This document shows positions 2,528 through 51,454 of a DNA stretch of 64,000 nt, one piece after another (within the stretch, counting starts at the first letter, position 1; each line of letters starts with the position of its first letter). Below the pieces are notes generated by a model, which saw nothing but the letters and a program-made list of their open reading frames with translations, was not told where the DNA came from and searched no databases. Source of the DNA: Candidatus Amesbacteria bacterium RIFCSPLOWO2_01_FULL_48_25 (GTDB lineage: Bacteria > Patescibacteriota > Microgenomatia > CAZETR01 > Amesbacteraceae); the NCBI GenBank assembly GCA_001773695.1, contig MEXN01000001.1:41903-105902 (forward strand). Reading direction: 5' to 3'. The position numbers and the translations under genes were made by a program.

Positions 2528-3868
2528 CTACCCTGCTTTCGTCAAGCTTTCCAAAAACTCATCATTATTTTTGGTCTTCTTCATTTTATTTATAAGAAGC
2601 TCGGTTCTCTCTTCAGCATCCAGAAGATCCAGCATTCGCCGCAGCTGATTAATTTTATCCAATCTCTTCCCCAAAAGCTTTTCTTCACCTCTAGTTCCTG
2701 ATACCAACAAATTAAACGATGGGTACACTCTCCGGTCGGCCAGCTTTCGGTCCAGATGCAACTCCATATTCCCCGTTCCTTTGAATTCCTCATATATGAG
2801 GTCATCCATCCGTGATCCCGTATCAACAAGGCATGTCCCAATAATCGTCAAGCTTCCCGCCCCGTCAATATTCCGAGCAGCGCCGAAGGCCTTCTTAGCA
2901 GGATAAATAGCCTCAGCCGAAAATCCACCCGACAGCATCCTTCCCGACTGTCCTCCAATCAGGTTATATGCCCGCGCCAGACGGGTTATGGAGTCCAAAA
3001 GCACGAACACGTCACGCCCCATCTCCACCAACCTCTTGGCCCTCTCCAAAGCCAGCTCGGCAATTCGCACCTGCTCCAGAGGTGGCTCATCAAAATGTGA
3101 TGCCGCCACTTCGCCCTTTAGGTTTCGCGTAATCTCCGTTACCTCTTCCGGTCGCTCGCCAATTAGTACCGCCATCAAATGCATTTTGGGATAATTCTTA
3201 GTGATCCCCTCGGCAATTTCGCGCATCAGCCAGGTTTTACCAGCCTTGGGTTGGGCCACAATCAAGCCCCGCTGTCCCCGACCAATCGGAGCAATCAAAT
3301 CAATAATCCGAGTAGAAAGCGGTTCTGGCCCAGTCTCCAGTATCACTTGTTCGTCCGGAAATATTGCCGTCATGGAATCAAAATCCGGCCGGCCGAGAGC
3401 CTCCTCAGGCGTCATTCCATTAATTTTTTCCACTTTTAGTAGACCCCAATACCTTTCGTTTTCTTTAGGCGCCCTGGCCTGACCTCCCACCATATCCCCA
3501 GGCCGAAGCGAAAACCGCCTCACCTGCGACGATGAAATATATACATCTTTAGACGACGGGATCATTTTGGGCCGCAAATATCCATGCCCGTCCGGCGTCA
3601 CATCCAGAAATCCCTCCACATATTCTGTCGGCAATCCCGCATCCGGAATAACCCGATCATCAACCGTGCCATCAAATTGCCCATATACCTGCCTACTCAC
3701 CGGCCTGGCAGCCCTTGGCGCTACTCTCCCAATCACTCGTACTACTCCCGGCCGCATCATCGACCTAATACCCGATCCCCCTGCCACCATTGGCCGGTCA
3801 TCCATGTTACTTTCACTGGACTCACTAGTAGCACTAGCCACGCCAGACACTTTGTCGTCGTCAGACAT
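2528..3868 (-). CDS. rho: Transcription termination factor Rho
   Basis: LIVAQPKAGKTWLMREIA...LIGERPEEVTEITR matches the Rho P-loop and core, and an OB-fold region lies upstream of it. There is an N-terminal extension. Confidence 0.9.
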   Translation of the reverse strand: MSDDDKVSGVASATSESSESNMDDRPMVAGGSGIRSMMRPGVVRVIGRVAPRAARPVSRQVYGQFDGTVDDRVIPDAGLPTEYVEGFLDVTPDGHGYLRPKMIPSSKDVYISSSQVRRFSLRPGDMVGGQARAPKENERYWGLLKVEKINGMTPEEALGRPDFDSMTAIFPDEQVILETGPEPLSTRIIDLIAPIGRGQRGLIVAQPKAGKTWLMREIAEGITKNYPKMHLMAVLIGERPEEVTEITRNLKGEVAASHFDEPPLEQVRIAELALERAKRLVEMGRDVFVLLDSITRLARAYNLIGGQSGRMLSGGFSAEAIYPAKKAFGAARNIDGAGSLTIIGTCLVDTGSRMDDLIYEEFKGTGNMELHLDRKLADRRVYPSFNLLVSGTRGEEKLLGKRLDKINQLRRMLDLLDAEERTELLINKMKKTKNNDEFLESLTKAG

Positions 3869-3949: not shown

Positions 3950-4678
3950 CTAGTATATCATTACCCGCCTGGCTGTCAATACCAGCCTTTTCCAAGCCGT
4001 CCCAGGGGGCCAGCAGGTCTGCAAAACCAAAATCTCTTCCTCATCCTGCGGCTTCAAATATCTCGTATCACTAGACGCTAGACGCTGAACGCTAGACACT
4101 TTGTATATAAACAACTTGCCCTTGTAAACCAACTGGACTTCATCACCCAGTATCAACCTATCAAGCAAATAAAACACCGCATTATATCTAGCAAAGTCAA
4201 TGGGTTGTGCCGAATGGGCAAACAAAAACGTCGTCCCCTTCTCCCCCGGATGAGCCAATCCTTTGGCCTGCGCCACCCCCAGCTTCAAAGCCGTCAAGTA
4301 CTCCTTCTCGCTCCCGGCATCTACATTCTCAATAACTTTAGATACAGCACCAATTTTGGGAATATATACCGAAAAATTCTCGTCCGGCACTTCCCATTTT
4401 GGGACTTGTGATTTAATTATTGGAATTTCACTGAGACTGGTGACTTGAGGTTTGGGATTTACGAAGTATCTAAATTCTTCTTTCGCTAATGGCCCAAATA
4501 TCACTATCATCGCTATAACCCCATATCCCACCATAACTATTCCCACAGCTTTCAACCCTCTCCCGACATTCTTCAAAACTGTCACCCTCTTCCCAATATC
4601 CACCACCCCCACCGCCCCTTTTCCATAAACTACCCCTGACTTCATTTCCAAACTCGTCTGGCCAATTTTTGAAACCAT
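3950..4678 (-). CDS. Sortase-family transpeptidase (probable true start at the Met near 4645)
   Basis: N-terminal TM segment; FLFAHS (His), LVLQTCWPPG (TLxTC Cys motif) and a C-terminal RR are sortase catalytic signatures. Confidence 0.75.
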   Translation of the reverse strand: MVSKIGQTSLEMKSGVVYGKGAVGVVDIGKRVTVLKNVGRGLKAVGIVMVGYGVIAMIVIFGPLAKEEFRYFVNPKPQVTSLSEIPIIKSQVPKWEVPDENFSVYIPKIGAVSKVIENVDAGSEKEYLTALKLGVAQAKGLAHPGEKGTTFLFAHSAQPIDFARYNAVFYLLDRLILGDEVQLVYKGKLFIYKVSSVQRLASSDTRYLKPQDEEEILVLQTCWPPGTAWKRLVLTARRVMIY

Positions 4679-5373
4679 AATCCAAAAACCACTACCCCCA
4701 CTGCCTCAGCAACCAACCACCCGCCCCCTCCAGTTTTAGGGGTCTTTTGGGCTACCGGGGAAAGTGTCGCACTGGGACTAGCAACTCCCGTTGATCTTAT
4801 GGTAACAGTCGGTCTAACCGTAAGCGTAGGCACGACTGTTGGTCGGAGTGTTGGTGTAGGGGTAGTCACGGTTGGCCGTATACTGGGCACAAGAGTGGGT
4901 ATAGTCTGTCTCGCTGTTGGAGAAACCGTCGGAACCTGCGTCAGCGTTGGAACCGCAGTTTGGATCTCACCTCCCGTACACTCCCCCGAATACCACACCA
5001 TATAATCCTTCAAATTGGCCTCATTACAAGTCCACCCCCCCACCCGGCAATTTTTATCAAAAACATTTAATGATACTGTCTTCCCGCACGGTATACCCGC
5101 TAGACTTTGGGAACTTGCCCAAGTCTCATTGTCTCCACACTCGGTCAGCTTTCCGTCACACACCCACTTGGCTACAAAAAAACTAGTAGCCTCACATTCT
5201 CCATTTACCGGATCACATTCTCCCGAACACCTGTGGACGTTGGCAGCTACTCCGCTCCCGCACAAATTAGTGTACACCCCCGCCCCGTAAGTGAGTGCCG
5301 GCCGACTTGGCCATTTCATTCCAAATACCGCCAGTATTGCGGTCAGTAGTGCCACAATTTTCGTCCTGATCAT
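4642..5373 (-). CDS. Secreted Cys-rich surface protein with Thr/Pro linker and C-terminal sorting-signal-like tail; candidate sortase substrate
   Basis: Signal peptide; about 12 Cys in the N-terminal domain; PT-rich linker. The C-terminus reads ...KTPKTGGGG-WLVAEAVGVVVFGLWF-QKLARRVWK (motif, hydrophobic span, basic tail). It overlaps the sortase gene immediately downstream on the same strand. Confidence 0.6.
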   Translation of the reverse strand: MIRTKIVALLTAILAVFGMKWPSRPALTYGAGVYTNLCGSGVAANVHRCSGECDPVNGECEATSFFVAKWVCDGKLTECGDNETWASSQSLAGIPCGKTVSLNVFDKNCRVGGWTCNEANLKDYMVWYSGECTGGEIQTAVPTLTQVPTVSPTARQTIPTLVPSIRPTVTTPTPTLRPTVVPTLTVRPTVTIRSTGVASPSATLSPVAQKTPKTGGGGWLVAEAVGVVVFGLWFQKLARRVWK

Positions 5374-5586
5374 ACCGAAATCTCGTGGGCTGGACTGGGA
5401 AGTGGTAAGCCTGCCCTACTCACCACCCCCCAGTTCAACCCGCGATCCTCACTCCACCCTCCCCGTGGCTAATTTATCCAAAATACAGCCGTGATTAGTC
5501 CTTATTTTTTCTTGACAAGCTTGTTTTATAAATGATATCACCATATCAAGTGACAATCGCCAGATCTGTCCAGGCGGTTTCATCCT

Positions 5587-5646
5587 AAAAGAGCATTGCT
5601 ACTCGTGGTCCTCATTTCCAGCGATGGCGATGCTCTTTTTTATCCA
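5587..5646. terminator. Hairpin AAAAGAGCATTGC...GCGATGCTCTTTT with flanking A- and T-runs (bidirectional terminator candidate)
   Basis: A roughly 13-bp stem with a long loop lies immediately 3' of small ORF A. A partial copy of the 3' arm (GGCGATGCTCTTTTTTT) also follows small ORF B at 5930-5948. Confidence 0.35.
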
Positions 5647-5852
5647 TTTCTTACCTTAGACAAATCGTGAGCATTTAAAGCCGCTGCGGAAACAGCTCCC
5701 AAAAGAGCGAGGAGAACCGCTGATTGCATCTTGCTTGAATATTCCGGAAAGGCAATCATCAATCCTAGTAACCCCAACTCCTCAGCCACAAATAAGACAG
5801 CCAACCCAGCTCTAAGTTTCATTCTTTTTATTATTTCAGTTTTTTCAATCAT
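5640..5852 (-). CDS. Small hydrophobic protein, paralogue A (about 71 aa from MIEKTEI)
   Basis: Two predicted TM helices. It is similar to the neighbouring ORF (KLRAGLAVLFVAEE / KMQSAVLLALLGAVSAAAL versus VRLVAGVMLALSGVE / PMQIAGVGAGVVAGPAL). A conserved 23-nt box lies about 20 nt upstream. Confidence 0.4.
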   Translation of the reverse strand: MIEKTEIIKRMKLRAGLAVLFVAEELGLLGLMIAFPEYSSKMQSAVLLALLGAVSAAALNAHDLSKVRNG

Positions 5853-5948
5853 ATTAGAAACGTCACCTCCCCACACTCATCGAAACAACTCCCTTGATGC
5901 ACTCTAACTTTGAATTCAACTTTACTCATGGCGATGCTCTTTTTTTGT

Positions 5949-6471: not shown

Positions 6472-7767
6472 CTAGTGCAAAAGTTTCTTAATCGCCGCCG
6501 CCACACTTTTACCCGATTCCGCCGAGGCCACCCTATACCCCAGTTTTTTCGCCTCTTTCACCCTCTTTTCCAGCCCCCCCACCTTCCTCACTTCCCCCAA
6601 CAAGCCCACCTCCCCAACCGCCGCGATATTACCCGAAAGCGGTTTATTCAAAAACGCCGAGGCCACCGCCAGACATATTGCCAAGTCCACCCCCCGGTCA
6701 GCCAGTCTAATTCCGCTCGTCACATTTACATAAATGTCACTTGTCTCTAGATGTAATCCCGCCCGGCGGGTCAAAACCGCCACCAACATCTGAATTCTTG
6801 CCAGATCTACCCCAGTAGTCACCCTGCGAGGCACCACCAACTGACTCGGAACCACAAGTGATTGTATTTCCACCAAAAGCGGCCGCCTTCCCTCCAAAAC
6901 CACCGACACCACGCTCCCCGCAACCCCTATCACTCTCTCCGAAAGCAAAATTTCCGATGGGTTATTCACTCCACTCATTCCCTTCTCAGTCATATCAAAT
7001 ACTCCCACTTCATCCGTCGGTCCGAACCGATTTTTTACCGCCCGTACTACCCGCAAACGTTGCCCCCTTTCGCCCTCAAACCACAGCACGCAATCTACCA
7101 TGTGCTCAAGTACCCGCGGACCGGCAATACTCCCTTCCTTCGTCACGTGCCCAATTAAAAACAATGGCTTTCCGCGACTTTTTGCACTCGTCGCCAACCG
7201 CAAAGCACACTCCCTTACTTGCCCTACCGACCCCGCCGTTCCAGTCAAATCCGACGTTGTCAATGTCTGAATAGAATCTACAATTATCACCTCCGGACCC
7301 ACCTCCTCGATCTTTGCCACAATTGCATCCGCATCTGTACTCTCCAACAACAAAATATCCCCCTTCCCTCCCAATCTCTTCACTCTCAAAGCAACCTGCG
7401 ATGCAGACTCTTCACCACAGACATATAGTACCCGATTCAATTTCAAAGCCACTTGCGTTAGTAACGTCGATTTGCCTATCCCCGGCTCCCCAGCGACCAA
7501 AACAACCATACCTGGCACCAATCCTCCCCCCAACACGCTATCCAATTCTCTTTCCCCAGTTTTGATTCTTTCATTTTCATCAACTTTAATTTCTGATAAC
7601 TTGTAAATTTTTGAATTGTAATTTTGATTTTTGACTTTTGAGTTTTGAGCTTGCGATACAACAGTCTCGACAAGACTGTTCCATGTATCGCAGCTAGGGC
7701 ATCTCCCCGCCCACTGACTCTGTGCATATCCGCACTGCTGGCACACAAACTGAGATCGAGATTTCAT
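6472..7767 (-). CDS. radA: DNA repair protein RadA/Sms
   Basis: N-terminal C4 zinc finger (CQQCGYAQSQWAGRCPSCDTWN), Walker A GEPGIGKSTLL, the RadA-specific KNRFG motif, and a Lon-like C-terminal domain. It carries an in-frame low-complexity insert (QNSKVKNQNYNSKIYK). Confidence 0.9.
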   Translation of the reverse strand: MKSRSQFVCQQCGYAQSQWAGRCPSCDTWNSLVETVVSQAQNSKVKNQNYNSKIYKLSEIKVDENERIKTGERELDSVLGGGLVPGMVVLVAGEPGIGKSTLLTQVALKLNRVLYVCGEESASQVALRVKRLGGKGDILLLESTDADAIVAKIEEVGPEVIIVDSIQTLTTSDLTGTAGSVGQVRECALRLATSAKSRGKPLFLIGHVTKEGSIAGPRVLEHMVDCVLWFEGERGQRLRVVRAVKNRFGPTDEVGVFDMTEKGMSGVNNPSEILLSERVIGVAGSVVSVVLEGRRPLLVEIQSLVVPSQLVVPRRVTTGVDLARIQMLVAVLTRRAGLHLETSDIYVNVTSGIRLADRGVDLAICLAVASAFLNKPLSGNIAAVGEVGLLGEVRKVGGLEKRVKEAKKLGYRVASAESGKSVAAAIKKLLH

Positions 7768-7775
7768 AAGGATCT

Positions 7776-8897
7776 CTATTTATACCCTACAGGCTTCTCG
7801 GAAAGTACCACTCCCAAGCTCAGACGCCTTTTATCCAAATCCACCGACTCAACAAACGTCTCAACGGCCTGCCCTTCAGAAAAGGCCATATCAGCAGGCA
7901 TTTTAGACGCATGAATTAGTCCCTCAATCCCCTTATCCAGTTTGACCAGCACCCCATAAGGAGCAATCTTAGTCACCACTCCCTTGTGCTTACTGTCCGT
8001 CTTATACTTTTTAGCCACCACCAGCCACGGGTCATCTGACAACCGCTTCATAGACAAGGCCAATTTCCCACTCTCTTCATCCGTCCCGATTACCTGCACT
8101 TTTACTACATCGCCATCCTTTAAGGCTTTATTTACATCATCAACTTTTTCCCAAGATATCTCGGAAATATGCACCAACCCTTCCAATTTTTCCTCCCCAT
8201 CCAAGCCAATCTCCACGAACGCTCCAAACGGTACTATTCCCACTACCCGACCCTCATAACTCCCACCCATCTTCACTTTAGACAACGACGCCTTCCGTTT
8301 ACCGATCTCTTCTTCCTCGGTCACCGCCTTCTCACTCATTACCAATCGGTTTTGTCCCCGGTCCACCTCCACTACCTTCACCGCAAACGTCCGGCCCACC
8401 AGTCCCGCCACATTTCCCTCCCACTCGCGGGACAGCTGAGACGCTGGCACAAATCCGTAAATACCCTCCACATCGACAAGTAGTCCCCCCCGTGTCGCTT
8501 CCCGACCCACCACACTTACCACGTCACCCTCCTCAAACGCCTTATCCATAGCTTTCCACCGGCTGTCGGTAACTGCCCGCTTGAGAGACAAGACCACCTG
8601 CCCCGAGTCTGACTCCGGCACCACCACCACTCCCGTAACAGTATCCCCCACTTTCAAAGCCTTCAAATAATCCCGGGACAAATCGTATTCCTGGTCCGAA
8701 ACCGTCGCTTCCGCTTTGCCTCCAATATCAATCGAAATCGCCCGCCCGGCAATAGCCACCACCCGGCCAGTTACCACACTTCCTCGCCTAAAGCCCTTTA
8801 TTTTATACCCCGTCGAAGCCAGTAGCTCCTCCATCGTGGAGGGTTCTCCACTACCAGACCCGGTTTTGACTTTTGACTTTTGACTTTTGACTTTCAA
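7776..8897 (-). CDS. rpsA: S1 RNA-binding domain protein (ribosomal protein S1-like, about 4 S1 repeats)
   Basis: Repeated S1 domain pattern (G.VV.G.V..I...GAFV.I). The N-terminal MKVKSQKSKVKT is encoded by a TTTTGAC tandem repeat; the true start may be MEELL near 8834. Confidence 0.7.
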   Translation of the reverse strand: MKVKSQKSKVKTGSGSGEPSTMEELLASTGYKIKGFRRGSVVTGRVVAIAGRAISIDIGGKAEATVSDQEYDLSRDYLKALKVGDTVTGVVVVPESDSGQVVLSLKRAVTDSRWKAMDKAFEEGDVVSVVGREATRGGLLVDVEGIYGFVPASQLSREWEGNVAGLVGRTFAVKVVEVDRGQNRLVMSEKAVTEEEEIGKRKASLSKVKMGGSYEGRVVGIVPFGAFVEIGLDGEEKLEGLVHISEISWEKVDDVNKALKDGDVVKVQVIGTDEESGKLALSMKRLSDDPWLVVAKKYKTDSKHKGVVTKIAPYGVLVKLDKGIEGLIHASKMPADMAFSEGQAVETFVESVDLDKRRLSLGVVLSEKPVGYK

Positions 8898-13145: not shown

Positions 13146-13173
13146 AAGTTTACCACCAAAAAAGCACGAATTT

Positions 13174-13288
13174 CCCGGCCACGACCTATTTTCACGGAGA
13201 GTTGCCCCTCAGCTATTGTCAGCGCTGGCGCGTTTTACGGTCCAGTTCGGAATGGGATGGAGTAGTTCCACGCCGCTCCAGTGACCGG
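13174..13288 (-). rRNA. rrf: 5S rRNA
   Basis: The minus-strand reading CCGGTCACTGGAGCGGCGTGGAACTACTCCATCCCATTCCGAACTGGACCGTAAAACGCGCCAGCG...GTCGTGGCCGGG has helix I end-pairing and the CCGAAC loop-C signature. Confidence 0.8.
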
Positions 13289-13506
13289 AAAATTCGTGCT
13301 TTCTTAAGTTTTCAACCAGGCGTTTATTCCCTGGAAAGTGAAGAGAATGTTTGTAATAGATCACGCAAATCTACTTCAATAAGACCGATTAGTACAGGTT
13401 CGCTAAACGCGTTACCGCGCTTACACGGCCTGCCTCTATTACGGGGTATTCTTCCCCGGGTCTTCTGTCCACCTTGCGGTGAACATGAGCTCCTTATCTT
13501 GGGTAG

Positions 13507-13539
<33 letters not shown>

Positions 13540-13678
13540 CGTAGGCACTTAGCTACCCGGCGATGCCGCAAGACGCGACAACCGGCACACCAGAGGTACC
13601 TCCACCCTGGTCCTCTCGTACTGAGGGCAGACCCCCTCAAGAGCTCCCCGACTCTACTGGATAGAGACCGACATTCAT

Positions 13679-14479
13679 CCCGCATATCACTATACGGATT
13701 CGACCATATCTTCACTTCATAGCTCATTCTGAGCATAGTAGTGTCTGACGTATGGCCTGTGAGGATTCTAGTCACCAAAGCTTCGGAGTATTTTTTCCCT
13801 TGAAAACTTTCGCTTACCCGTATTCATGGAATAGGCGATCTCCAAAACTTTAGCCATCCCCTTTCTATGTAAATGCTGTCTTGATTTTACTAGCTCAACG
13901 ACTCGACAAAATTTATCAAAGTCTTCAGCCTTTTTAGTCAGCAATTTATTTCGAAAAAATGGGATTACTTTATCGACAATGCTTGGCAAATCTCTTACAA
14001 CATAAGCCAAACTTTTATCGGTTTTATCAGTTAGACTATTCTGTTTAATATAGCCGCAGTCTAATTTTCGTTTAAGTTTTTCCAAAACTATCCTCCCAGA
14101 AGGGTTCTGTGAAACTTTGAAAAAATAAACCACTTGCCAATGGGTAATTGTTTCCTGGCTTCTAACTATTCCTACATAGAAACAACCTTCGCCTTCAACA
14201 AAACCCACCAAATAATCATCACTGATCATTCGACTAGTCTTTCCTGCTGATAATCTTGCCTTCGTTCTCACACAAAGTGGTTTTACATTTTTACTAGTAT
14301 ACAAATACTACACTAGTAGCAAAACATTTACAAGGTTTTCCAGCATATAGTCAAATTTTATCCACACTTGGGTTGGTGGAATCATCTAATAACAGTTTCT
14401 CGCATAATTTAAATTAACATTCAAAAACGGTGGATGATAGACAGCTCGAAATTGTCACCTATTAGAATTACTTTAGGTC
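13679..14479 (-). mobile_element. Group I intron in 23S rRNA domain V (insertion after ...GAGACAGT, before TCGGTC...)
   Basis: Exon continuity GTGAGACAGT | TCGGTCTCTATCC is broken by about 800 nt that contain a LAGLIDADG ORF. The 5' exon ends in U and the intron ends in G, as expected for group I introns. Confidence 0.75.
13768..14304 (-). CDS. LAGLIDADG homing endonuclease (intron-encoded)
   Basis: LVGFVEGEGCFYVGIV is a LAGLIDADG motif variant. The ORF lies entirely inside the 23S rRNA intron. Confidence 0.8.
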   Translation of the reverse strand: MYTSKNVKPLCVRTKARLSAGKTSRMISDDYLVGFVEGEGCFYVGIVRSQETITHWQVVYFFKVSQNPSGRIVLEKLKRKLDCGYIKQNSLTDKTDKSLAYVVRDLPSIVDKVIPFFRNKLLTKKAEDFDKFCRVVELVKSRQHLHRKGMAKVLEIAYSMNTGKRKFSREKILRSFGD

Positions 14480-14516
<37 letters not shown>

Positions 14517-15105
14517 CTTTTAACCGGCGAACAGCCGGACCTTTGGGAGGTACTGCCCCCCCTGGATAGGATGAGCCGACATCGAGGTGCCAAACCGCCG
14601 CGTCGATATGGACTCTTGGCGGCGATCAGCCTGTTATCCCTAGGGTAGCTTTTATCCGTTAAGCTCGCCGCCACCCACGTGGCATGCGAGGATCACTACG
14701 GCCTGCTTTCGCACCTGCTCGAGCTGACACTCTCACAGTCAAGCACACTTTTGCCGTTACACGACCCGTTCGATTTCCATCCGAACTTAAGTGTACCTTG
14801 GCACTCCTGCGTTACCTTTTAGCAGGATACCTCCCCAGTAAAACTGCCCCCCAGACCTTGTCCCCTCCGACGTTTCCAGTCGGAATAAGTAAGTCTTGAG
14901 ATTTTAAAACGAGAGGTGTTTCACTTTCTCCCAAAGCCTTGCGGCCAAAGGATACCTCCTACTCTAAACTATCTCAAAATCCAAAACAGGGCCTGAGTAC
15001 AGTAAAGCTCCATAGGGTCTTTTTGTCCTAGTAGAGTTAGGCCGCATCTTCACAGCCATTTCAATTTCGCCGGGTAACAGTTCAAGACAGTTGCTCTGTC
15101 GTTAA

Positions 15106-15141
<36 letters not shown>

Positions 15142-16700
15142 CTTCGCTACCATAGAACAGTTATAGTTACTGCTGCCGTTCACTCGAGCTTCATTTCAAG
15201 TCTTCGCCCTTGCGGGCTAAACCATCCACTTAACTTACGAGCACTGGGCAGGCTTCAGCCTGTATACTGCCTCTTTCGAGTTTGCACAGACCTGTGTTTT
15301 AGTTAAACAGTCGCAGAGCAATCTTTCGCTGCGGTCCGCCAAATGGCGGACAGGACATCTTGCTAACTTACGTCCAGCTTTTTTGCCGAGTTCCTTGAAC
15401 TGCCTTCTCCCGATCGCCTTGGTCTACTCGACCATCCCACCAGTGTCGGTTTGCGGTACGGCAAAGTAAACGTCTCGTCACGAACTTTTTCTCGAAAACA
15501 AAAACATTCCGGATCATCAACTCAATTTCTCAAGTCAACTCTTCATCACCACTCAATTAAACGCCATGCCGGATTTTCCAGGCACAACTGTTTCATGGCT
15601 TAAACGCGCATTCACTGCACACGCCCAGATGTTCTCGTTTTGTCTATCCCTGACTATTAACGACGTCCACTCTGTAGCCGAATATTCACGGCTCGTCCAT
15701 CAGCTACGGCCACTACGCCCTCGCCTTAGGTGCCGACTCACCCTGGGCCAAACAATGTCGCCCAGGAAACCTTGGGATTTCGGCGGTCCGAATTCTCATC
15801 GGACTTACGCTACTCATTCCGGCATTCTCACTTGAAACCGCTCCAAACCGGTTTACACCAGCCCTTCGCAGCAATTTCAACGCTCCCCTACCGATTCGTG
15901 CGCAGCACGAAAGTTACTAAGTATTCCAGTTAACCAGTTGCACAGTTGATTTAAACTGACAAACTGGAAAACTGTCGAACTGAATAACTTTTGTGCTACA
16001 CACAAATCCTGTGTCTTCGGCAAAACGCTTCAGCCTCGGTTCATTTTCCGCGCCAAACTCCAAATTCGACCAGTGAGCTGTTACGCTTTCTTTAAAGGAT
16101 GGCTGCTTCTGAGCCAACCTCCTGGCTGTCTGAGGAATTTGACTACGTTCAACACTAAGCGTTCATTTAGAGGCCTTAGACGACAGTCTGGGTTGTTTCC
16201 CTTTAGATCGGCCCGCTTAGCCGGGTCGTTCTGACTCCCTCGTAAGTTCTTACCAGCATTCGGAGTTTGATTGAATATTACAACTTGCGCTGCAACACCC
16301 ATCCAGTGCTCTACCTCTGATAAGTTTTTAACGAGAGGCTATACCTATATATATTTCGGGGAGAGCCAGCTATCTCCTGGTTCGATTGGCATATTACCCC
16401 TAATCACAAGTCGTCCCACAGGTTTGTAACCCTGACGGGTACGGGCCTCCCTCCGGTTTTCACCGGAGCTCACCCTGCTCATGATTAGCTCACCAGGTTT
16501 CGGGTCTTCCAGCTGCTGCTTTTCGCCCTATTCAGACTCGCTTTCGCTCCGCCTACTCCCGATTTAATCGGGATTAAACTCGCAACAACCGAAAACTCGC
16601 CGGATCATTCTTCAATAGGCACGCGATCATCCGCCAGATGGCGGACTCTCACTGCTTGTTAGCAGACAATTTCAGGTTCTATTTCACTCGGGTTTCGCCC

Positions 16701-16742
<42 letters not shown>

Positions 16743-17356
16743 ATGCCAAAGTATTTAGCCTTGGAGCGTGGTTGCCCCGGATTCCCACAAAGTATGTGCT
16801 TCATGGTACTTGGGAACAAGCTAGGGTGGATTTAGATTTCACCTACGCGGCTATCACGCGCTCTGGCCTGACTTTCCAGACAGTTCGGCTATCCAAAACC
16901 CAATCCCACATTACTTGCCCCGCAACACCACTCCATAGCCCTTACGGGCAACGGGTGGTTTAGGCTTTTCCGATTTCGCTCACCGCTACTCACGGAATCT
17001 CTTTGATTTATTTTCCAGTCCCTACTTAGATGTTTCAGTTCGAGACGTTCCCCCCACGTTCATTTAACTGAACGTGGTCTCCATATAGGAGGGGTTTCCC
17101 CATTCGGAAACCGCCGGATCAGCGCTTCTTGGCAGCTCCCCGACGACTATCGCGGCCCTGTACGTCCTTCTTCGGCTTTGACATCCTAGGCATCCATTGT
17201 CTGCATTACGGAAGTATAAAATGCGGCTCTACTACAAAATTCTCTTCACTTTTCAAAGAGCAAACATTCCTCAGCCGTTGATGGCTGATCTCGGCCTCCC
17301 CACGAAAGGGAAACCGGGATCAACTCTCAAAGCTTGCCCTGAGCACGGTCGAATGG

Positions 17357-17431
17357 GTGGACTCGGAGGGATTCGAACCCTCGACCTCATCATTGCAAAT
17401 GATGCGCTCTAGCCAACTAAGCTACGAGCCC
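17357..17431 (-). tRNA. tRNA-Ala (anticodon UGC)
   Basis: GGGCTCGTAGCTTAGTTGGCTAGAGCGCATCATTTGCAATGATGAGGTCGAGGGTTCGAATCCCTCCGAGTCCA has a G3:U70 pair, a UGC anticodon and a canonical T-loop. It sits immediately upstream of the 23S. Confidence 0.85.
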
Positions 17432-17442
17432 TCCGAATCTAA

Positions 17443-17471
17443 ATTGTCAAAAAAACACCTCCTTTCGGAGG
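17443..17471 (-). terminator. Intrinsic terminator (CCTCCGAAAGGAGG + U-run) upstream of tRNA-Ala
   Basis: Minus-strand hairpin followed by TGTTTTTTTG. It would separate the upstream protein genes from the tRNA-Ala-23S-5S unit. Confidence 0.45.
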
Positions 17472-17605
17472 CCACGATTACCTTGCTTTATAGGTGCTCT
17501 AGGACACGCCCGACACCAAGTTGATTAGATTTAAAAGCAAAGTCCTCATGAATTCAAACCACCCTCGAAAGGTAATCCTGATATTACCTTCCCCTTCCCT
17601 CCCTG

Positions 17606-17908
17606 TCAAGCCCGTCCACTATGGTTATGCATAAGTTTTGGCTGTGAAGCAAGTATCCTAACCAGTTCCCTCCTAGCCTTTTCGGCAACAAGTATGTTCG
17701 CATTGACCAACCTCCTATCAATATTTGCCTCCGAAACCCCTTCGGTAACCCCGGGATCCAACTCATAATAGTCACCGGATTTATCCTTTAATTCTTTCAG
17801 CCTGGCCAGCTTAACTGAATACGAAACCCCACTTAGTACATCGGCATCAAAAGATCCCAGCATCTCCTCACGTCTCATTCTTTCATCAAACTGAGCATCA
17901 GTTTCCAT
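17606..17908 (-). CDS. Hypothetical protein (100 aa), last gene of the HlyD/MacB-like cluster
   Basis: Acidic, non-repetitive composition; no motif recognised. Confidence 0.3.
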   Translation of the reverse strand: METDAQFDERMRREEMLGSFDADVLSGVSYSVKLARLKELKDKSGDYYELDPGVTEGVSEANIDRRLVNANILVAEKARRELVRILASQPKLMHNHSGRA

Positions 17909-17940
17909 GGCTATATTTTAAAATCCCTTCCAGTCAACTC

Positions 17941-19179
17941 TTATTCATACCTCAAGGCCTCAATCGGGTCTAAACGCGCGGCCCGTACCGCCGGCGCCAG
18001 TCCCGATACTATCCCCACCACGGCCGACACCCCAAAAGCCAAGAGTACCGATCCCAAGCTCACCTGAGTCTCGATAAACCTTCCCAAAATTAGAGAAAAC
18101 CCGGCCCCTATGCCTATTCCCATTCCCCCCCCCAGTACCGACAATACTATCGCCTCAATCAAAAATTGCAGCAGTATATCTCTTTTAGTCGCCCCCACCG
18201 CTTTGCGAAGTCCAATCTCCCGCGTCCTCTCCGTCACCGACACCAGCATAATATTGGCAATCCCAATTCCGCCCACAACCAGAGAAATTGCCGCAATCCC
18301 AGACAATGCCCCCGTCACCACCCCCAAAAATGAATTAATCGTCTCCAATAGTTCCTTAGGCTCAAGTATCGTAAAGTCGTCATCCGTCAAATTCTTGCGG
18401 TAAAAATAGTTTTTAATTTTCCGGGCAGCCACCGCCGTCCCCGCAGCATCCACTGTCCTCACCATTACTGCCGCCGGTTTTTTAATCCCCGTTACCCGAG
18501 ATGCCGTAGTCACCGGCATCAGCACAAAAGTATTTTCATCACTATTTCCTCCTATCCCCCCGCCTTTCTCCTTCAAAACTCCGACAATAGTCATCTGCGA
18601 TCCCACCACGTCAATCTCCTTTCCCACCGCATCGCCGACCCCGCCAAATAGTTCCTCATAAACCTTGTGTCCAATTACCACTACCATCTGGCTCCGTTCC
18701 AGCATACTTTTAGTAAAAAACCTGCCCATTTCCACCTCCACGTTGCCGTAATCCAAATACTCCTCGCTTACCCCCGCGATATTTCCGTAAAAGGTTTCAG
18801 AGCGGTATTTTAGTGTCCCCCCCCGGGAAATCATCCCCGACGCCTTCACTATCGGGTCTCCCAAATCGCCTATTTCTTTTATGTCGTTAAAATCAAACTT
18901 CGCCTCTACGTTTCTTGGCGGTCCGCCAGAAAAACTCACTTTCCCAGGCGATATCAAAAGGATATTCGACCCCAAGGACTCAAATTCACGCGTCACAAAT
19001 GCCTGCAGCCCGTTGCCAATAGACACCAAAAGAATGACCGACGCCACCCCGATAATAATCCCCAACGTAGTCAAAACCGACCGCGTTTTATTGGTTCTAA
19101 TAGCAATCCCGGCCGTCCTAAATAACTCGACTCTATCCATACTATCTGATGACGATCCTTTCGCCTTCTTTAAGCCCAA
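17941..19179 (-). CDS. ABC transporter permease, MacB/FtsX family (MacB periplasmic core domain + FtsX)
   Basis: N-terminal TM, a large periplasmic domain, then a C-terminal FtsX-type 3-TM bundle (TERTREIGLRKAVGATKRDIL). No ATPase gene is adjacent. Confidence 0.8.
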   Translation of the reverse strand: MGLKKAKGSSSDSMDRVELFRTAGIAIRTNKTRSVLTTLGIIIGVASVILLVSIGNGLQAFVTREFESLGSNILLISPGKVSFSGGPPRNVEAKFDFNDIKEIGDLGDPIVKASGMISRGGTLKYRSETFYGNIAGVSEEYLDYGNVEVEMGRFFTKSMLERSQMVVVIGHKVYEELFGGVGDAVGKEIDVVGSQMTIVGVLKEKGGGIGGNSDENTFVLMPVTTASRVTGIKKPAAVMVRTVDAAGTAVAARKIKNYFYRKNLTDDDFTILEPKELLETINSFLGVVTGALSGIAAISLVVGGIGIANIMLVSVTERTREIGLRKAVGATKRDILLQFLIEAIVLSVLGGGMGIGIGAGFSLILGRFIETQVSLGSVLLAFGVSAVVGIVSGLAPAVRAARLDPIEALRYE

Positions 19180-20137
19180 CTTTTACTTCTATCAAATCAT
19201 CCCCCTCAATCCCTATCTCCACTTTCCTCTTCCCTCCACCCTCCATCTCTGCCTCACCATCCACCACGGCTTCAATCGGCAACTTCAATACATTTTTCGC
19301 CTCCGAAACGACAAGTGTCGCATCCCCGTTCATCCCCACCCTTAATATCTCAATATCCTCTTCACTTATCTTGACTCTCACCGAAAACACTGTCGCCCCG
19401 GCATCTGAAATATGGGCCACAAACTCAATTATTTTTATTTCCCCTTCAAATTCTTTATCCGGATATGCATCCAGCTCAACCTTCACTTTCTTCCCAATAG
19501 TTACCATGGACAAATCCGCCTCATCTACCTCGGCCTCAAAATACAGCGAGTCGGGATCCACTACATCCACTCCATCGGTAACCCCCGCCGCCTGCCCTAC
19601 CACATTCACAGTCACCCTGGCCACAACCCCGTCAAATGGCGCGATCAAACTGGCATTATTCTTGGCCCGGATCGCGCTCTGCCACGTATCATAAGCTTTA
19701 TCCCTGACGGTCTGTGCCGCCACCCGCTTGTTTTTCAGAACAAATGTCTCGTCATTATCATGGCCTTTTACTTCGTCCTCCACCTGTTTGGCATTAGCAT
19801 CCGCCGCGATATAACTATAATAGGCGGCCGTTTCGGCAGCAGCCAAATCCCGCACGTCCAATCCCATCATAGCCGTCCCCTTTTTCACCTCGTCTCCCTC
19901 GCGGGCCTTCACATACCCCAGCTTACCCGGACTCAAGAATCGTAAATGCGCTTCTTTCTCCGCTTTGATTTTCCCCGATAGTGCCAGAGTCCTAACCACG
20001 TCACCCTTCTCCACGCTCACAATCCTTGTATTCTTGTTGTTGTTGCTTTTACTCCTCATCCACAACCACCACCCCGCCCCAACGACAAGTATTAAAATAG
20101 CAATCGCTATGTTGCGCCGCCTCATAGACTTACCCAT
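19142..20137 (-). CDS. Efflux/secretion periplasmic adaptor (HlyD/MacA family membrane fusion protein)
   Basis: N-terminal TM anchor, coiled-coil segment, lipoyl/beta-barrel segments. It overlaps the permease gene. Confidence 0.75.
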   Translation of the reverse strand: MGKSMRRRNIAIAILILVVGAGWWLWMRSKSNNNKNTRIVSVEKGDVVRTLALSGKIKAEKEAHLRFLSPGKLGYVKAREGDEVKKGTAMMGLDVRDLAAAETAAYYSYIAADANAKQVEDEVKGHDNDETFVLKNKRVAAQTVRDKAYDTWQSAIRAKNNASLIAPFDGVVARVTVNVVGQAAGVTDGVDVVDPDSLYFEAEVDEADLSMVTIGKKVKVELDAYPDKEFEGEIKIIEFVAHISDAGATVFSVRVKISEEDIEILRVGMNGDATLVVSEAKNVLKLPIEAVVDGEAEMEGGGKRKVEIGIEGDDLIEVKVGLKEGERIVIR

Positions 20138-20419
20138 TTTAACTCACCGTGCTAAACTTAAATAAGATTATGAAACCAACCACAGTCGTCTTTAGTCTCA
20201 TAGCCACCATCGCTGTCGTTTTTCTTGTGGCGGCCATTGGTTCCTTCCTCTACGGCATATTCATCCTCCCCAAACTCAACCGCGGCATTTTTTGTATTCA
20301 ATCCCTCTCCCGTTCCTGCTTTCTTGGTTCCACTATCTGTTACAATTTCCCCAATCCCTGCTCCGCCCCACCCCTCTGGTACCCCAGATCCCGCTAGTTA
20401 AGATATAATTCACCTGTTC

Positions 20420-20491
20420 GGGTCGCTGGTTCAGCGGTAGAACGTCGTCCTGATAAGACGAAAACGCCAGGTCCGACTCCTGGGCGACCCA
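20420..20491 (+). tRNA. tRNA-Ile (anticodon GAU)
   Basis: GGGTCGCTGGTTCAGCGGTAGAACGTCGTCCTGATAAGACGAAAACGCCAGGTCCGACTCCTGGGCGACCCA folds as a cloverleaf only on the plus strand. Anticodon loop CTGATAA; T-loop TCCGACT is non-canonical; a TATAAT box lies 10 nt upstream. Confidence 0.7.
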
Positions 20492-20504
20492 CTAAAACTA
20501 TCCA

Positions 20505-20741
20505 TCACTCTACTAGAGTAAATCCAATCATTCGCCCCTCTTTATTCACCACCTCATCAAACTTTCGGCCATTTGGTAATTGCCACCTTGTCTTTTTTTC
20601 CCCATCCTTATCTCTACACCAAACAGCCTCCCACCCCCACCGCTTCCTATCCTCAGCAATTGCAAACTCCTTTTCCAGCCGCCGCCTATTTATCAAGCCC
20701 ATAAGACGAAGATACTCCAAATCGCCTATCTCCTTCATCAA
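20505..20741 (-). CDS. Hypothetical small protein (78 aa)
   Basis: ORF between tRNA-Ile and the 16S; basic/acidic mix; no motif. Confidence 0.3.
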   Translation of the reverse strand: MMKEIGDLEYLRLMGLINRRRLEKEFAIAEDRKRWGWEAVWCRDKDGEKKTRWQLPNGRKFDEVVNKEGRMIGFTLVE

Positions 20742-20992
20742 ATATCTGTTTTTAAGCTCTTCCGTTTCTGTTCTCCAACCCGGAAATCTCCCTCTCGAGT
20801 CCCTCCACCATATCTTTATAAACCATAAATTCCGTATACCGCAGTTCGGAAAGAGAATTCTCGTGCCGCACGCCCCGGAATTTTCTCTTGGCCTCCAAAT
20901 ATTTCGGCTTATATTTCGCCAGCTGCTCCTCCAAATATTTCAGCCTCGTCTGAGTGTCCATACCCCATTTTAACCCTCCGACCAACAGTAAC

Positions 20993-21235
20993 CTACTGCC
21001 TAAAAAGCAACACACCCAAAAGGCGAGCCAACACCGACTCTCTTGGATTTACACGCATCCAATATCCCCTACGAACCCTATCTACTACTCCCCTCATGTG
21101 ACATTGGGTACAACTAAATTCTCTGCCCGCCAGCCCTTCCGCAGCTTTCTTCTTCAATATCTCAGGCAACGGACAATCGCTCTCTTGTTGACAACCCACA
21201 ATTACTAATGGCACTCCTAACCTCATTTCTATCAT
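20993..21235 (-). CDS. Hypothetical small Cys-containing protein (80 aa; C..C...C..C.H zinc-ribbon-like)
   Basis: CQQESDCPLPE...CTQCHMRG. It sits just after the bidirectional terminator that follows the 16S. Confidence 0.3.
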   Translation of the reverse strand: MIEMRLGVPLVIVGCQQESDCPLPEILKKKAAEGLAGREFSCTQCHMRGVVDRVRRGYWMRVNPRESVLARLLGVLLFRQ

Positions 21236-21261
21236 ACTCAGATTATATCAATAACAAGGCC

Positions 21262-21291
21262 AAAAAACCCGCCAAATAGGCGGGCTTTTTT
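21262..21291. terminator. Bidirectional intrinsic terminator AAAAAACCCGCCAAATAGGCGGGCTTTTTT
   Basis: Perfect 6-bp GC stem flanked by an A6 run and a T7 run, located about 180 nt past the 16S 3' end. Confidence 0.75.
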
Positions 21292-21470
21292 GCTTGTACT
21301 CTAAAAAGTGGTAGGAAATATAAGTAGCGGGAAACTGCTTTTGACGTGTGCTGCTTCCCCTACCTGCGGGTCCCGTTATTTTAATGTGGACGGTTTCCAA
21401 TGACCACAGGGTGATTTCCACTACGGCTCTGAAAAAATTAATTTTCTAAGCCTACCGTGATTAACTCCTA

Positions 21471-22965
<1,495 letters not shown>

Positions 22966-24947: not shown

Positions 24948-25763
24948 TCACGTTTGCGGCAGGTTTGCCCACTGTGTCTGATCCTCAAACAATTTGTCAT
25001 GGAATTCCCAGAACTTTCCCTGATCCTTAGCACACTCTGCCGCTTCAGCAGACTTCTGAGCATTAGGATGAATCTGAGACAGTGGGAAGTGTTTATAAGC
25101 AAACAGGACTTTACCGCTATATTCTTTCAAAATCTGTTGCACCGTCGGAAACGCCCTGGAACAAAACGGGCATTGGAAGTCGGAATATTCTATCAAGGTG
25201 ATCGGCGCCCCCTTAGTCCCCTGCGTCGGCGCATTCCCCACACTCACCGTCGCCCGAGTCACCGACTTATCCGCTTTCCCAGTCAACTCCTCATCGATAA
25301 TCTTTTTAAACTCCTCAAACGGATACGCCCCCGCCAGAAGCCTGCCATTTATAAAAAACCCTGGCGTCCCCTGCACTCCCACCTTACCGCCTTCAGCCAA
25401 GTCCGCATCAACTATGGCCTTCTTACTCCCCGAGTTCACACAACTCATCAACTTATTTCCGTCCACGCTTGTCTGTTTAGCATAATCCTTCATCGCCTCG
25501 GCAAAACTCTTATATTTGGAATTGACATTTGGCGCAGCGACATTGCCCGCCTGTCCAGTCGTAGTCCCACTCGGAGCGGAGGAGGACTCCAGGTATTTAA
25601 GTTTGCTCCACATCGATCCCAACACAAACGCTCCAATCACGATAACCACAGCCATTACCGGCGCCATCTTTTCCAATAGACTCTTCTGCGGTATACCCCT
25701 CGAAGCTTCATCGTAGTAGGGCATCACTTCTGGTTCTACAACTTTTCTTGTTCTCACTGCCAT
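24948..25763 (-). CDS. DsbA-like thiol:disulfide oxidoreductase (membrane-anchored thioredoxin fold)
   Basis: N-terminal TM; CPFC active site (FQCPFCSRAFP). Confidence 0.75.
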   Translation of the reverse strand: MAVRTRKVVEPEVMPYYDEASRGIPQKSLLEKMAPVMAVVIVIGAFVLGSMWSKLKYLESSSAPSGTTTGQAGNVAAPNVNSKYKSFAEAMKDYAKQTSVDGNKLMSCVNSGSKKAIVDADLAEGGKVGVQGTPGFFINGRLLAGAYPFEEFKKIIDEELTGKADKSVTRATVSVGNAPTQGTKGAPITLIEYSDFQCPFCSRAFPTVQQILKEYSGKVLFAYKHFPLSQIHPNAQKSAEAAECAKDQGKFWEFHDKLFEDQTQWANLPQT

Positions 25764-25812
25764 GCCAGCCTTTATATCAAATAAATAGCCAACTATGCAA
25801 CTACCAATCTAA

Positions 25813-26721: not shown

Positions 26722-26764
26722 ATTTAACAGTTTTTACAACTTTTTGAAGCTAATTTAACAAGTT

Positions 26765-27097: not shown

Positions 27098-27107
27098 ACC
27101 ACACCTC

Positions 27108-51360: not shown

Positions 51361-51440
51361 CTACTAAATATTACCACTCCCGCGAGGACTTCATGAAATC
51401 AATTTTTGGAATCCGCAAAGCCAGCTTCGAATGGTATAAT

Positions 51441-51446: not shown

Positions 51447-51454
51447 TGTTCTTT

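Follow-up and report, generated by a model that had tools for sequence, protein, structure and literature searches.

A sortase and a neighbouring Cys-rich surface protein with a candidate TPKTG sorting signal in Candidatus Amesbacteria

We analysed a 64-kb stretch of DNA (hereafter 'the window') from an uncultivated groundwater bacterium, a Candidatus Amesbacteria member of the candidate phyla radiation. The ORF list of the window contains, on the minus strand, an upstream ORF at 4642..5373 (243 aa) and a downstream ORF at 3950..4678, so that both members of the neighbouring pair described in an initial annotation were recovered. The upstream gene (4642..5373, stop codon included; assigned from the ORF, its homologues and their alignment) encodes a secreted surface protein, here termed the substrate, for which an identical 243-aa protein is present in public data (P0001) and 65 homologues were found. 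The downstream gene encodes a sortase. The two genes overlap, as the initial annotation had it, but the 37-nt overlap that follows from the ORF coordinates rests on the longest-ORF start of the sortase at 4678. An inner ATG, at 4645, shares an ATGA with the stop codon of the substrate gene; the window sortase is 100% identical to a public 231-aa protein (P0066; A2634_03470, from Candidatus Amesbacteria bacterium RIFCSPHIGHO2_01_FULL_48_32); and the related locus L003 also has an ATGA junction, with an inner-start product, MRGVVYQKGA, that matches MKSGVVYGKGA in the window. From the 231-aa annotation, and from the junction and N-terminus shared with the relative, we conclude that the sortase gene most likely spans 3950..4645 (231 aa plus stop), starting at 4645 rather than 4678, and that the real overlap is most likely 4 nt.

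The substrate was originally described as a secreted protein with a Cys-rich domain and a Thr/Pro linker, and it contains a hydrophobic leader, the domain and the linker, with 10 Cys rather than the approximately 12 first counted. The N-terminal leader (residues 1-26; 5296..5373, minus strand) comprises MIRTK followed by the hydrophobic stretch IVALLTAILAVFG and is presumed to be a Sec signal peptide; an AF2 model places a helix at residues 2-17, and in the substrates of relatives canonical AxA-type sites end just ahead of the conserved start of the domain, YGxGxYTNLCGSG. The ectodomain (residues 27-132; 4978..5295, minus strand) is predicted to adopt an Ig-like beta-sandwich fold; 8 of its 10 Cys are invariant, and 2 nearly invariant, in an alignment of 58 homologues. 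The linker (residues 133-207; 4753..4977, minus strand) contains 20 Thr, 13 Pro and 11 Val in 75 aa and is predicted to be disordered (AF2 pLDDT about 44-57), and it would likely form a stalk spanning the cell wall.

The substrate C-terminus reads PVAQK-TPKTG-GGG-WLVAEAVGVVVFGLWFQ-KLARRVWK. The pentapeptide TPKTG (residues 211-215; 4729..4743, minus strand) comes directly after the conserved PVAQK and leaves 28 residues to the C-terminus: GGG, a 17-residue hydrophobic span (WLVAEAVGVVVFGLWFQ, residues 219-235; 4669..4719, minus strand) that includes one Glu and lies within an AF2 helix at residues 218-241, and a basic tail (KLARRVWK, residues 236-243; 4645..4668, minus strand). A terminal K/R-x-[IVF]-W recurs in substrates of the Amesbacteria group. 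By analogy with other sortases, including C. difficile SrtB, the predicted cut would fall between Thr214 and Gly215. In the published definition (PMC4155245), a sortase substrate has a signal peptide and, 17-45 residues before its C-terminus, a pentapeptide to which a hydrophobic span and then a basic tail are appended; the position and surroundings of TPKTG agree with this.

The same architecture, xPx[TS][GA] plus hydrophobic span plus basic tail, is present in 55 of the 65 substrate homologues. Position 1 of the pentapeptide, Thr in the window, is Q in 20 family members, T in 16, S in 8, A in 4, L in 3, N in 3 and V in 1, and in 58 sequences P212, T214 and G215 each reach at least 90% conservation, next to a linker of low complexity that is poorly conserved. 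Conservation of P, T and G amid a variable, low-complexity tail argues that the sorting-signal architecture is more than chance. The results uphold the initial identification of a full sorting signal with a non-canonical motif, and, as judged from the aligned sequences, xPxTG is the conserved core of that signal across the substrate family. In NCBIfam, no sorting-signal (LPXTG-anchor) model matched the substrate at E up to 1, a weak negative because speed filters readily discard models this short. Ahead of PxTG, by 4-8 residues, is a conserved VLGA/PVAxK element. Giant proteins encoded beside sortases in other lineages (Shapirobacteria- and Moranbacteria-type loci) have this element too but no PxTG at all, which suggests that recognition may depend on more than PxTG.

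The assignment of the downstream gene as a sortase, made in the initial annotation, is borne out by profile, catalytic residues and fold. Its product matches the Pfam sortase family PF04203 (peptidase family C60) with 72.6 bits against a cutoff of 26.6, over profile positions 1-125 of 125, and the generic NCBIfam model sortase_fam with 44.3 against 39.35. The catalytic role of a His-Cys-Arg triad is established sortase enzymology, and the segment carrying the triad lies at 3986..4216 on the minus strand, with His144 (4214..4216) in FAHS, Cys211 (4013..4015) in LQTCWPPGT, and Arg220 (3986..3988). H144, C211 (in VLQTC, a TLxTC-like motif) and R220 are invariant in a 40-sequence sortase alignment and in a further sortase alignment, and align to class C motifs. 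An N-terminal membrane anchor (residues 33-56; 4478..4549, minus strand) lies inside a predicted helix (residues 17-62) ahead of the barrel. The AF2 model (pLDDT 86) has the sortase beta-barrel fold, and the best 50 matches in a Foldseek search with this model were all sortases, with E down to 2.6e-11.

With respect to class, the window sortase reached none of the curated cutoffs of the NCBIfam sortase class models: scores were 40.4 against a cutoff of 165 for class D, 36.3 against 160 for class C, 24.5 against 160 for class E, 21.7 against 158 for class GN and 21 against 166 for class F, and the class A and class B models gave no match at E up to 1. The structures nearest to the model belong to classes C, D and E, those of classes D, E and A matching almost as well as those of class C. 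No C-terminal membrane helix comes after the catalytic domain, the protein ending in LTARRVMIY, 11 residues past R220. Ahead of the barrel lies a conserved P-x-W-x-V-P-D segment; the lid motifs of class C are DPW, DPF and DPY. Sortase relatives number 3962 at E < 1e-5, with 251 among species-representative genomes, from which 80 species-level loci were kept, among them loci of Amesbacteria, Woesebacteria, Roizmanbacteria, Curtissbacteria and other Patescibacteria groups, with some records bearing other names in their titles.

The order substrate-then-sortase is found in four of the five contigs that carry substrate homologues, including a PKD-domain variant in another neighbourhood; it is seen in loci L001, L003 and L006 and also in L005, where the flanking genes are different, and, with the sortase as query, in many of the 80 species-level loci. 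Among the 79 species-level loci analysed, 65 have a same-strand ORF directly upstream of the sortase, and in 26 of these that ORF carries xPx[TS][GA] plus hydrophobic span plus basic tail. A second, unrelated protein family lies in tandem beside the same sortase in L010, L011 and L016 and shares only the C-terminal signal (...AVAATTPKTG...). The expectation that further proteins would carry the motif thus holds for relatives through this second family, but not for the window, where a search of the full 64 kb for other xPxTG proteins found none. The recurrent gene order, the xPxTG core and the second family bearing the signal support the original proposal of a sortase-substrate module with a divergent, non-Leu motif; the enzyme may equally be a general housekeeping sortase as a dedicated one. 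Sortases whose partners carry non-Leu motifs differ consistently from those whose partners carry LPxTG at residues 130, 132, 150 and 174, and also over the stretch corresponding to residues 193-200 of the window enzyme, which sits between the last two long predicted strands preceding the Cys strand (DT[RK]YLxPQ vs. DTSWL), a co-variation of enzyme and motif that is confounded with phylogeny.

Upstream of the two genes lies a conserved element, not noted in the initial annotation, that is a long, covarying RNA hairpin matching no Rfam family (about 5376..5451, minus strand; covariance-model hit 5385..5441). The hairpin ends 12 nt before the substrate ATG, has an invariant 9-nt loop (UAGGGCAGG, 5418..5410), and has a free energy of -49.7 kcal/mol (z -6.1). 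Across 26 sequences, compensatory changes are present in 15 of 15 pairs, and 84.8% of hairpin positions are paired vs. 42-54% in slid controls, with none of 500 shuffles as good. A covariance-model search yielded one match per locus in 30 related loci and in the window, on the operon strand every time. A metagenome scan with an 18-nt pattern having 14 specified bases gave 120 matches, of which 110 were chance matches with no stem and 10 were real hairpins. Rfam gave no match over the window at gathering score, only chance-level matches at E up to 10 (nearly all to miRNA-precursor hairpin models), and no match at the hairpin of eight related loci. SRP RNA has conserved internal loops; a divergent SRP RNA was considered and rejected, there being no Rfam match and the apical 15 bp being a plain helix without such loops. 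No complement to the UAGGGCAGG loop was found in the operon mRNA, and the single 8-nt complement in the window falls in 23S rRNA, approximately one such match being expected by chance in 64 kb. The hairpin may have a role in expression.

Starting from what is observed directly (the gene order and its conservation, the sortase fold and triad, the conservation of P, T and G, and the tripartite signal), we consider it probable that the locus is a two-gene, translationally coupled surface-display unit in which the sortase anchors the substrate through TPKTG, that [Q/T/S/A/N]-P-x-T-G rather than L-P-x-T-G constitutes a lineage-wide variant of sortase anchoring, and that the enzyme belongs to a large candidate-phyla-radiation sortase clade outside classes A-F. 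According to this explanation, the Sec system would export the 243-aa substrate, the disulfide-rich Ig-like domain would fold outside the membrane (a DsbA-like thioredoxin gene is present in the window at 24948..25763), and the C-terminal hydrophobic span and basic tail would keep the protein in the membrane. The membrane-anchored sortase encoded downstream would then attack TPKTG with Cys211 and cut between Thr214 and Gly215, yielding a thioester intermediate, and the substrate would be passed to an amine, presumably of a cell-wall precursor, so that the Thr/Pro-rich stalk would project the domain from the wall.

A broader reading, which we regard as tentative, is that the locus represents a three-part Microgenomates module comprising a new structured RNA, one or more [QTSAN]PxTG surface proteins with VLGA/PVAxK before the motif, and a sortase clade that is unclassified and restricted to the candidate phyla radiation. 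In this module the RNA would be free-standing in Woesebacteria-type genomes, with its own promoter and U-tract, and would be fused as a 5' leader in Amesbacteria. If this reading is correct, surface-protein display would be governed by the RNA, either as a regulator of a new class or as an RNA that binds protein, and the sortase clade, whose recognition of position 1 would be relaxed or altered, would deserve to be ranked as a separate class.

It is improbable, in our estimate, that the locus is instead a minimal pilus system, in which a class C-like sortase would polymerise the substrate head-to-tail through a Lys isopeptide, in place of or before wall anchoring. Class C pilus sortases (for example S. 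agalactiae SrtC1 and Actinomyces oris SrtC) indeed match the enzyme best in structure and profile, the TCxPxG around the catalytic Cys is shared with them, their genes likewise adjoin substrate genes, and an Ig-like domain on a stalk is pilin-like. However, identity to these enzymes is 20-25%, the class C cutoff is missed widely, classes D, E and A match almost equally in structure, and the enzyme has no C-terminal membrane helix, a typical class C feature. Moreover, the 58-sequence substrate alignment contains no invariant or nearly invariant Lys, which argues that the substrate lacks a pilin-motif nucleophile.

Comparably slight is the probability that the substrate C-terminus is a mere membrane anchor, or is cut elsewhere, for example at PVAQK/VLGA, with xPxTG not scissile and the gene adjacency reflecting synteny. 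Because these lineages share a syntenic radA ... rho block, adjacency by itself is weak evidence, and the VLGA-like element ahead of PxTG is the sole feature shared with the Shapirobacteria- and Moranbacteria-type giant proteins. Against this, the pair is kept together outside the radA-rho context (L005), the signal is common to two unrelated ectodomains, P, T and G are conserved within a low-complexity tail, and the motif, 28 residues from the C-terminus, lies within the 17-45-residue window for sortase substrates. Anchoring of the substrate through TPKTG by the neighbouring sortase is the explanation that we prefer.

Variation at positions 1 and 2 of the pentapeptide with sortase class has precedent, as has a sortase encoded beside its cognate substrate: class B sortase-isd loci use NPQTN in S. 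aureus and NPKTG in B. anthracis, and class E sortases use LAXTG. Class B-like NPKTG (P0060) and NPQTG (P0057) occur in the Amesbacteria substrate family, but the class B sortase-isd and class E systems involve another enzyme clade and another substrate family. Closer in motif is C. difficile SrtB, for which cleavage of (S/P)PXT|G at the T|G bond has been demonstrated and for which some sortase substrates are preceded by c-di-GMP riboswitches (PMC4155245; PMC4591827). In both systems the motif is a non-Leu xPxTG with a hydrophobic span and a basic tail behind it, and in both a structured RNA can precede the substrate. The two differ in that position 1 is S or P in C. difficile and mostly Q, T, S, A or N in the Amesbacteria family, and in that the RNA here is a plain hairpin matching no known riboswitch. 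SrtB is a class B enzyme, whereas the nearest classes here are C, D and E, so that any shared specificity would be convergent. The Amesbacteria sortase is very probably a member of fam000526, a sortase family reported from nearly all Microgenomates and from over half of CPR genomes, in passages that mention no substrates, sorting motifs or associated RNA (Meheust et al., 2019; PMC6744442). A literature search for work on CPR sortase substrates found none.

Bacteria of the candidate phyla radiation are ultrasmall and are believed to spend their lives attached to other cells, probably hosts; to our knowledge, their surface proteins are almost unknown, and hardly any regulatory RNAs are known in them. 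The motif [Q/T/S/A/N]PxTG plus hydrophobic span plus basic tail provides a testable rule for predicting wall-anchored Microgenomates proteins, and a conserved, disulfide-rich, Ig-like surface protein would be a leading candidate for a role in cell-cell contact. Sortase anchoring as a concept stays as it is, though it would now reach a large lineage that is uncultivated. The specificity of a sortase clade that falls outside the six textbook classes could be of use in protein ligation, and the conserved RNA hairpin offers a handle on gene regulation in these organisms.

Farther upstream, a terminator-like hairpin (5587..5639, minus strand; 13-nt arms followed by UUUU; free energy -20.1, z -2.9) lies directly after the stop of a small ORF (5640..5876), which points to a promoter of the substrate-sortase unit's own within 5452..5586; consensus scans for an operon promoter, including this interval, called none. 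The inverted repeat TGATATCACCATATCA (TGATAT-CACC-ATATCA), which the initial annotation placed at 5541-5556 and which is located at 5533..5548 (no strand assigned), is very improbably an operator controlling the operon: it sits in the presumed promoter region between TTGTCA and TATAAA hexamers, and in a post hoc test few copies of its exact pattern would be expected in the window (0.11, allowing up to one mismatch), but its arms are just 6 nt, the hexamers are 20 nt apart with no promoter called there by consensus scan, and we judge it to be chance-level because the 277-nt spacer around it contains six perfect inverted repeats of 6 nt, and none of 87 related loci shows the pattern. A TTGTCAAG box (5511..5518, minus strand), seen by eye, lies upstream of the conserved hairpin, and, also by eye, the TTGTCAAG box precedes the hairpin in several Woesebacteria-type loci.

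The results establish that the two minus-strand ORFs of the initial annotation, at 4642..5373 (243 aa; the substrate) and 3950..4678 (242 aa in its longest form), are both present, and that the downstream ORF encodes a sortase, as called there (Pfam PF04203, 72.6 bits vs. a cutoff of 26.6). Window translations and Pfam domains of syntenic relatives place rho (2528..3868) on one flank of the pair and radA with an S1-domain gene (6472..8897) on the other. The two ORFs do overlap, but the overlap of 37 nt arises because the longest ORF was taken as the gene; with the ATG at 4645, it shrinks to an ATGA that includes the substrate TGA. One relative, 57% identical, has the same ATGA junction, its inner-ATG product starting MRGVVYQKGA vs. 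MKSGVVYGKGA in the window, and the identical sortase in public data has 231 aa (A2634_03470, Candidatus Amesbacteria bacterium RIFCSPHIGHO2_01_FULL_48_32), an identity that also places the source organism in Microgenomates, part of the candidate phyla radiation (CPR; Patescibacteria). The inner ATG, which fits both the public record and the junction in the relative, is thus most likely the sortase start.

The substrate comprises a hydrophobic N-terminal leader, a Cys-rich domain, a 75-residue Thr/Pro/Val-rich linker, and a C-terminal tail, PVAQK-TPKTG-GGG-WLVAEAVGVVVFGLWFQ-KLARRVWK; the architecture is that first described, except that the domain has 10 Cys residues rather than about 12. We find 65 homologues, all hypothetical or unannotated and from Microgenomates-type sources, in three variants: the domain plus a stalk, or this arrangement extended either by a second small Cys-rich module (CRNPSC...CFC) or by two PKD domains. 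In a 58-sequence alignment, eight Cys residues of the N-terminal domain (YGxGxYTNLCGSG ... YMVWYSGxC) are invariant and two more nearly so, and Pro, Thr, and Gly of the sorting motif are at least 90% conserved within a low-complexity, variable tail. The divergent TPKTG signal proposed for this protein is supported: xPx[TS][GA] followed by a hydrophobic span and basic residues is present in 55 of the 65 homologues, those without a complete signal being mostly truncated or frameshifted. The first motif position in signal-bearing homologues is Q (20), T (16), S (8), A (4), N (3), L (3), or V (1). In the window protein 28 residues follow TPKTG, within the 17-45 residue window used to define C. difficile sortase substrates (PMC4155245).

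A VLGA / PVAxK element lies 4-8 residues N-terminal to PxTG and may extend the recognition motif or form a second one. Giant proteins (~1500 aa) adjoining the sortase in Shapirobacteria- and Moranbacteria-type loci have VLG[AET], then a membrane-spanning segment and a basic tail, but lack PxTG, so the recognition determinant may exceed five residues. Large or giant proteins (about 400 to 1700 aa) lie just upstream of the sortase in L032, L034, L038, L041, L052, L057-L059, L066, L067, L069, L070, L072-L074, L076, L079, L080, and L082 (L numbers denote related loci), which are Shapirobacteria-type, Moranbacteria-type, or similar; most close with a VLG[AET]-like element followed, after 10-25 residues, by a membrane span and a tail rich in Lys/Arg, and PxTG is absent.

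The proposed sortase-substrate pairing recurs in related contigs. Four of five long contigs that carry homologues have the order substrate, sortase, one of the four with a PKD-type homologue in another neighbourhood, downstream of a tRNA-modification gene. Among 79 species-level loci retrieved by the sortase and analysed, 65 have a same-strand ORF directly upstream, and 26 of these 65 ORFs carry a sorting signal, counts that are not independent events because the sample is phylogenetically clustered. Members of the Amesbacteria group have xPxTG signals that start with T, S, N, or V, and Woesebacteria-type genomes have LPxTG. Three loci (L010, L011, L016) have two tandem substrates ahead of the sortase, the second from an unrelated family that resembles the window protein only across ...SAVAATTPKTG.... 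The check for the motif in other proteins thus succeeds in relatives, the 64 kb scanned from this genome holding no further such protein, and, since two unrelated families beside the same sortase carry it, the motif is a portable signal rather than one family's quirk. The second substrate (L010:4270-5004, L011:4309-5004, L016:4250-4990) is secreted, has a TPKTG / NPEAG-type signal, and lies between the Cys-rich substrate and the sortase; upstream of each copy is a canonical TTGAC-N17-TATAAT promoter ending only ~7 nt from the ATG, so that the mRNA may be leaderless or have a very short leader.

Sortases paired with non-Leu signals differ consistently from those paired with LPxTG at residues 130 (L vs. 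T), 132 (H vs. F), 150 (D vs. N), and 174 (Y vs. F). They differ also in the segment that aligns with window residues 193-200 (DT[RK]YLxPQ vs. DTSWL), which falls between the two final long predicted strands ahead of the Cys strand. These differences are suggestive but confounded with phylogeny.

The window sortase passes the threshold of the generic NCBIfam sortase model; all NCBIfam class models listed are far below cutoff (21-41 bits vs. 140-166), and neither the class A nor the class B model is listed in that scan. His144, Cys211 (in VLQTCWPPGT), and Arg220 are unchanged in an alignment of 40 homologues. An AlphaFold model (pLDDT 86) has a long N-terminal helix, residues 17-62, followed by a beta-barrel. 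Its Foldseek matches are all sortases, class C pilus enzymes being best (E 2.6e-11) with classes D, E, and A just behind, and identity is 17-26% throughout; profile-to-PDB matches are consistent with this. A role as a pilus polymerase is less likely, because the sortase has no C-terminal helix and misses the class C cutoff, and because the substrate has no conserved Lys in the 58-sequence alignment. Relatives number 3962 proteins at E < 1e-5, and a search of species-representative genomes gives 251; the 80 loci kept include, besides records with less informative titles, Amesbacteria, Woesebacteria, Roizmanbacteria, Gottesmanbacteria, Levybacteria, Curtissbacteria, Shapirobacteria, Daviesbacteria, WWE3, and Moranbacteria, a breadth that fits the near ubiquity reported for a sortase family in Microgenomates (PMC6744442). 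Residues 1-12 (of 3950..4645, minus strand) form a cytoplasmic motif before the membrane anchor, kept across lineages: Amesbacteria have GVVYxKG, and Woesebacteria-type sortases have P[KH]G[TI][IV]Y.

By analogy with established sortase enzymology, the substrate would be exported via Sec, its domain would fold oxidatively outside the membrane, and the hydrophobic span and basic tail would retain the protein in the membrane until Cys211 attacked the Thr214-Gly215 bond, the acyl-enzyme intermediate being resolved by the amine of a cell-wall precursor. A DsbA-like thioredoxin-fold gene detected by Pfam (24948..25763, minus strand) could supply disulfide formation outside the membrane. It belongs to a redox cluster (24948..27674, minus strand) of relevance to the disulfides of the 10-Cys substrate, with neighbours whose translations look like thioredoxin reductase (25813..26721) and thioredoxin (26765..27097); a putative 188-aa membrane protein beside the latter (27108..27674, minus strand) has no Pfam match.

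Between radA and the operon lies a long conserved hairpin (about 5376..5451, minus strand; -49.7 kcal/mol, z -6.1) that ends 12 nt 5' of the substrate ATG. Across 26 distinct Amesbacteria and Woesebacteria sequences, the GGGCAGG core of its 9-nt loop, UAGGGCAGG (5418..5410, minus strand), is invariant and the first U nearly so, position 2 alone varying, in a few sequences. Compensatory changes occur in 15 of 15 stem pairs, 84.8% of positions pair vs. 42-54% with slid partners, and the covariation score is 0.665 vs. 0.27 in shuffles, reached by none of 500. G-U pairs are frequent on the operon strand, which indicates an RNA read in the operon sense. Run on 83 related loci, a covariance model gives a single strong match in 30 of them, as it does in the window, and every match is on the operon strand; the loci with the hairpin are L006-L024, L026-L028, L031, L035, L045, L051, L054, L060, L062, and L064. 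A metagenome scan yields ten more copies (L114, L123, L138, L139, L142, L161, L180, L184, L195, and L207), all with radA or a contig end upstream.

In ~25 of 30 distinct hairpin loci the ORF that follows encodes a sorting-signal protein, and in three it encodes the sortase itself. The link to the sortase locus is strong but not absolute, because L007 has the hairpin ahead of a substrate homologue without an adjacent sortase, L184 (reverse-complemented) has radA, hairpin (about 1120), and rho together with no sortase or substrate gene between, showing that the hairpin can persist without the operon, and L138, L161, and L195 have a different sortase-like gene after it. In these last three (reverse-complemented) a 225-240-aa sortase-like protein ending LILYTCE.LNS.VRIF lies ~20-250 nt past the hairpin, which follows radA, and in L161 and L195 an 85-89-aa secreted protein that has ...TDLGD..., a membrane-spanning segment, and a basic tail lies further downstream; the two may represent a further kind of sortase and a mini-substrate of its own.

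The hairpin looks like a free-standing small RNA in Woesebacteria-type loci, where it comes with its own TTGACA-17-TAGACT promoter and with a U-tract, beyond which the substrate gene has a new promoter. In Amesbacteria it looks like a 5' leader, since the window hairpin has no U-tract and abuts the start codon. No Rfam family matches the hairpin in the window and related loci searched, and the literature searched ties no RNA motif to Microgenomates. Candidate roles are regulator of surface-protein expression, protein-binding RNA, and mRNA-stabilising 5' stem; c-di-GMP riboswitches upstream of C. difficile sortase substrates provide a precedent (PMC4591827). A conserved TTGTCAAG box (5511..5518, minus strand), also upstream of the hairpin in L023, L024, L026, L027, L031, L035, and L060, forms in several loci the loop of a short GC-clamped hairpin that lies 5' of the long one; the box may belong to the RNA or act as a -35-like element.

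The inverted repeat upstream, suggested as an operator, lies at 5533..5548, 8 bases from its reported site, and we judge it a chance occurrence, because there are six perfect 6-nt inverted repeats in the same 277-nt spacer, its pattern is found in 0 of 87 related loci, and the scan called no consensus promoter around it. The long hairpin and a terminator-like hairpin (5587..5639, minus strand; 13-nt arms and a U-run), directly after a small ORF (5640..5876), are both real structures, the latter implying a separate promoter for the operon.

Class B sorting motifs include NPQTN/NPKTG, and class E sortases recognize LAXTG. C. difficile has the non-Leu motif (S/P)PXTG (PMC4155245). With these motifs established, the concept of a non-Leu signal is not new. 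As far as the literature searched shows, the new elements are the substrate family itself, the [QTSAN]PxTG signal shared across the lineage, the fact that this signal is paired with an unclassified CPR sortase clade, and the hairpin RNA associated with the pair.

Elsewhere in the window, the rRNA genes are dispersed over 13173..22965 on the minus strand (16S, 21472..22965; 23S, 14406..17220; 5S, 13173..13289), with ~4.2 kb of ORFs, tRNA-Ala, and a tRNA-Ile on the opposite strand between 16S and 23S, and a LAGLIDADG homing-endonuclease ORF (13768..14304) between 23S and 5S. At 51428..51686 on the plus strand the group I intron model RF00028 is matched over its full length with 62 bits, and no host exon, whether tRNA, rRNA, or protein-coding, is evident around the match. 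A 781-aa protein with type IV secretion coupling-like domains (TrwB/TraG/VirD4) is encoded at 56044..58389 on the minus strand, adjoining tRNA-Glu.
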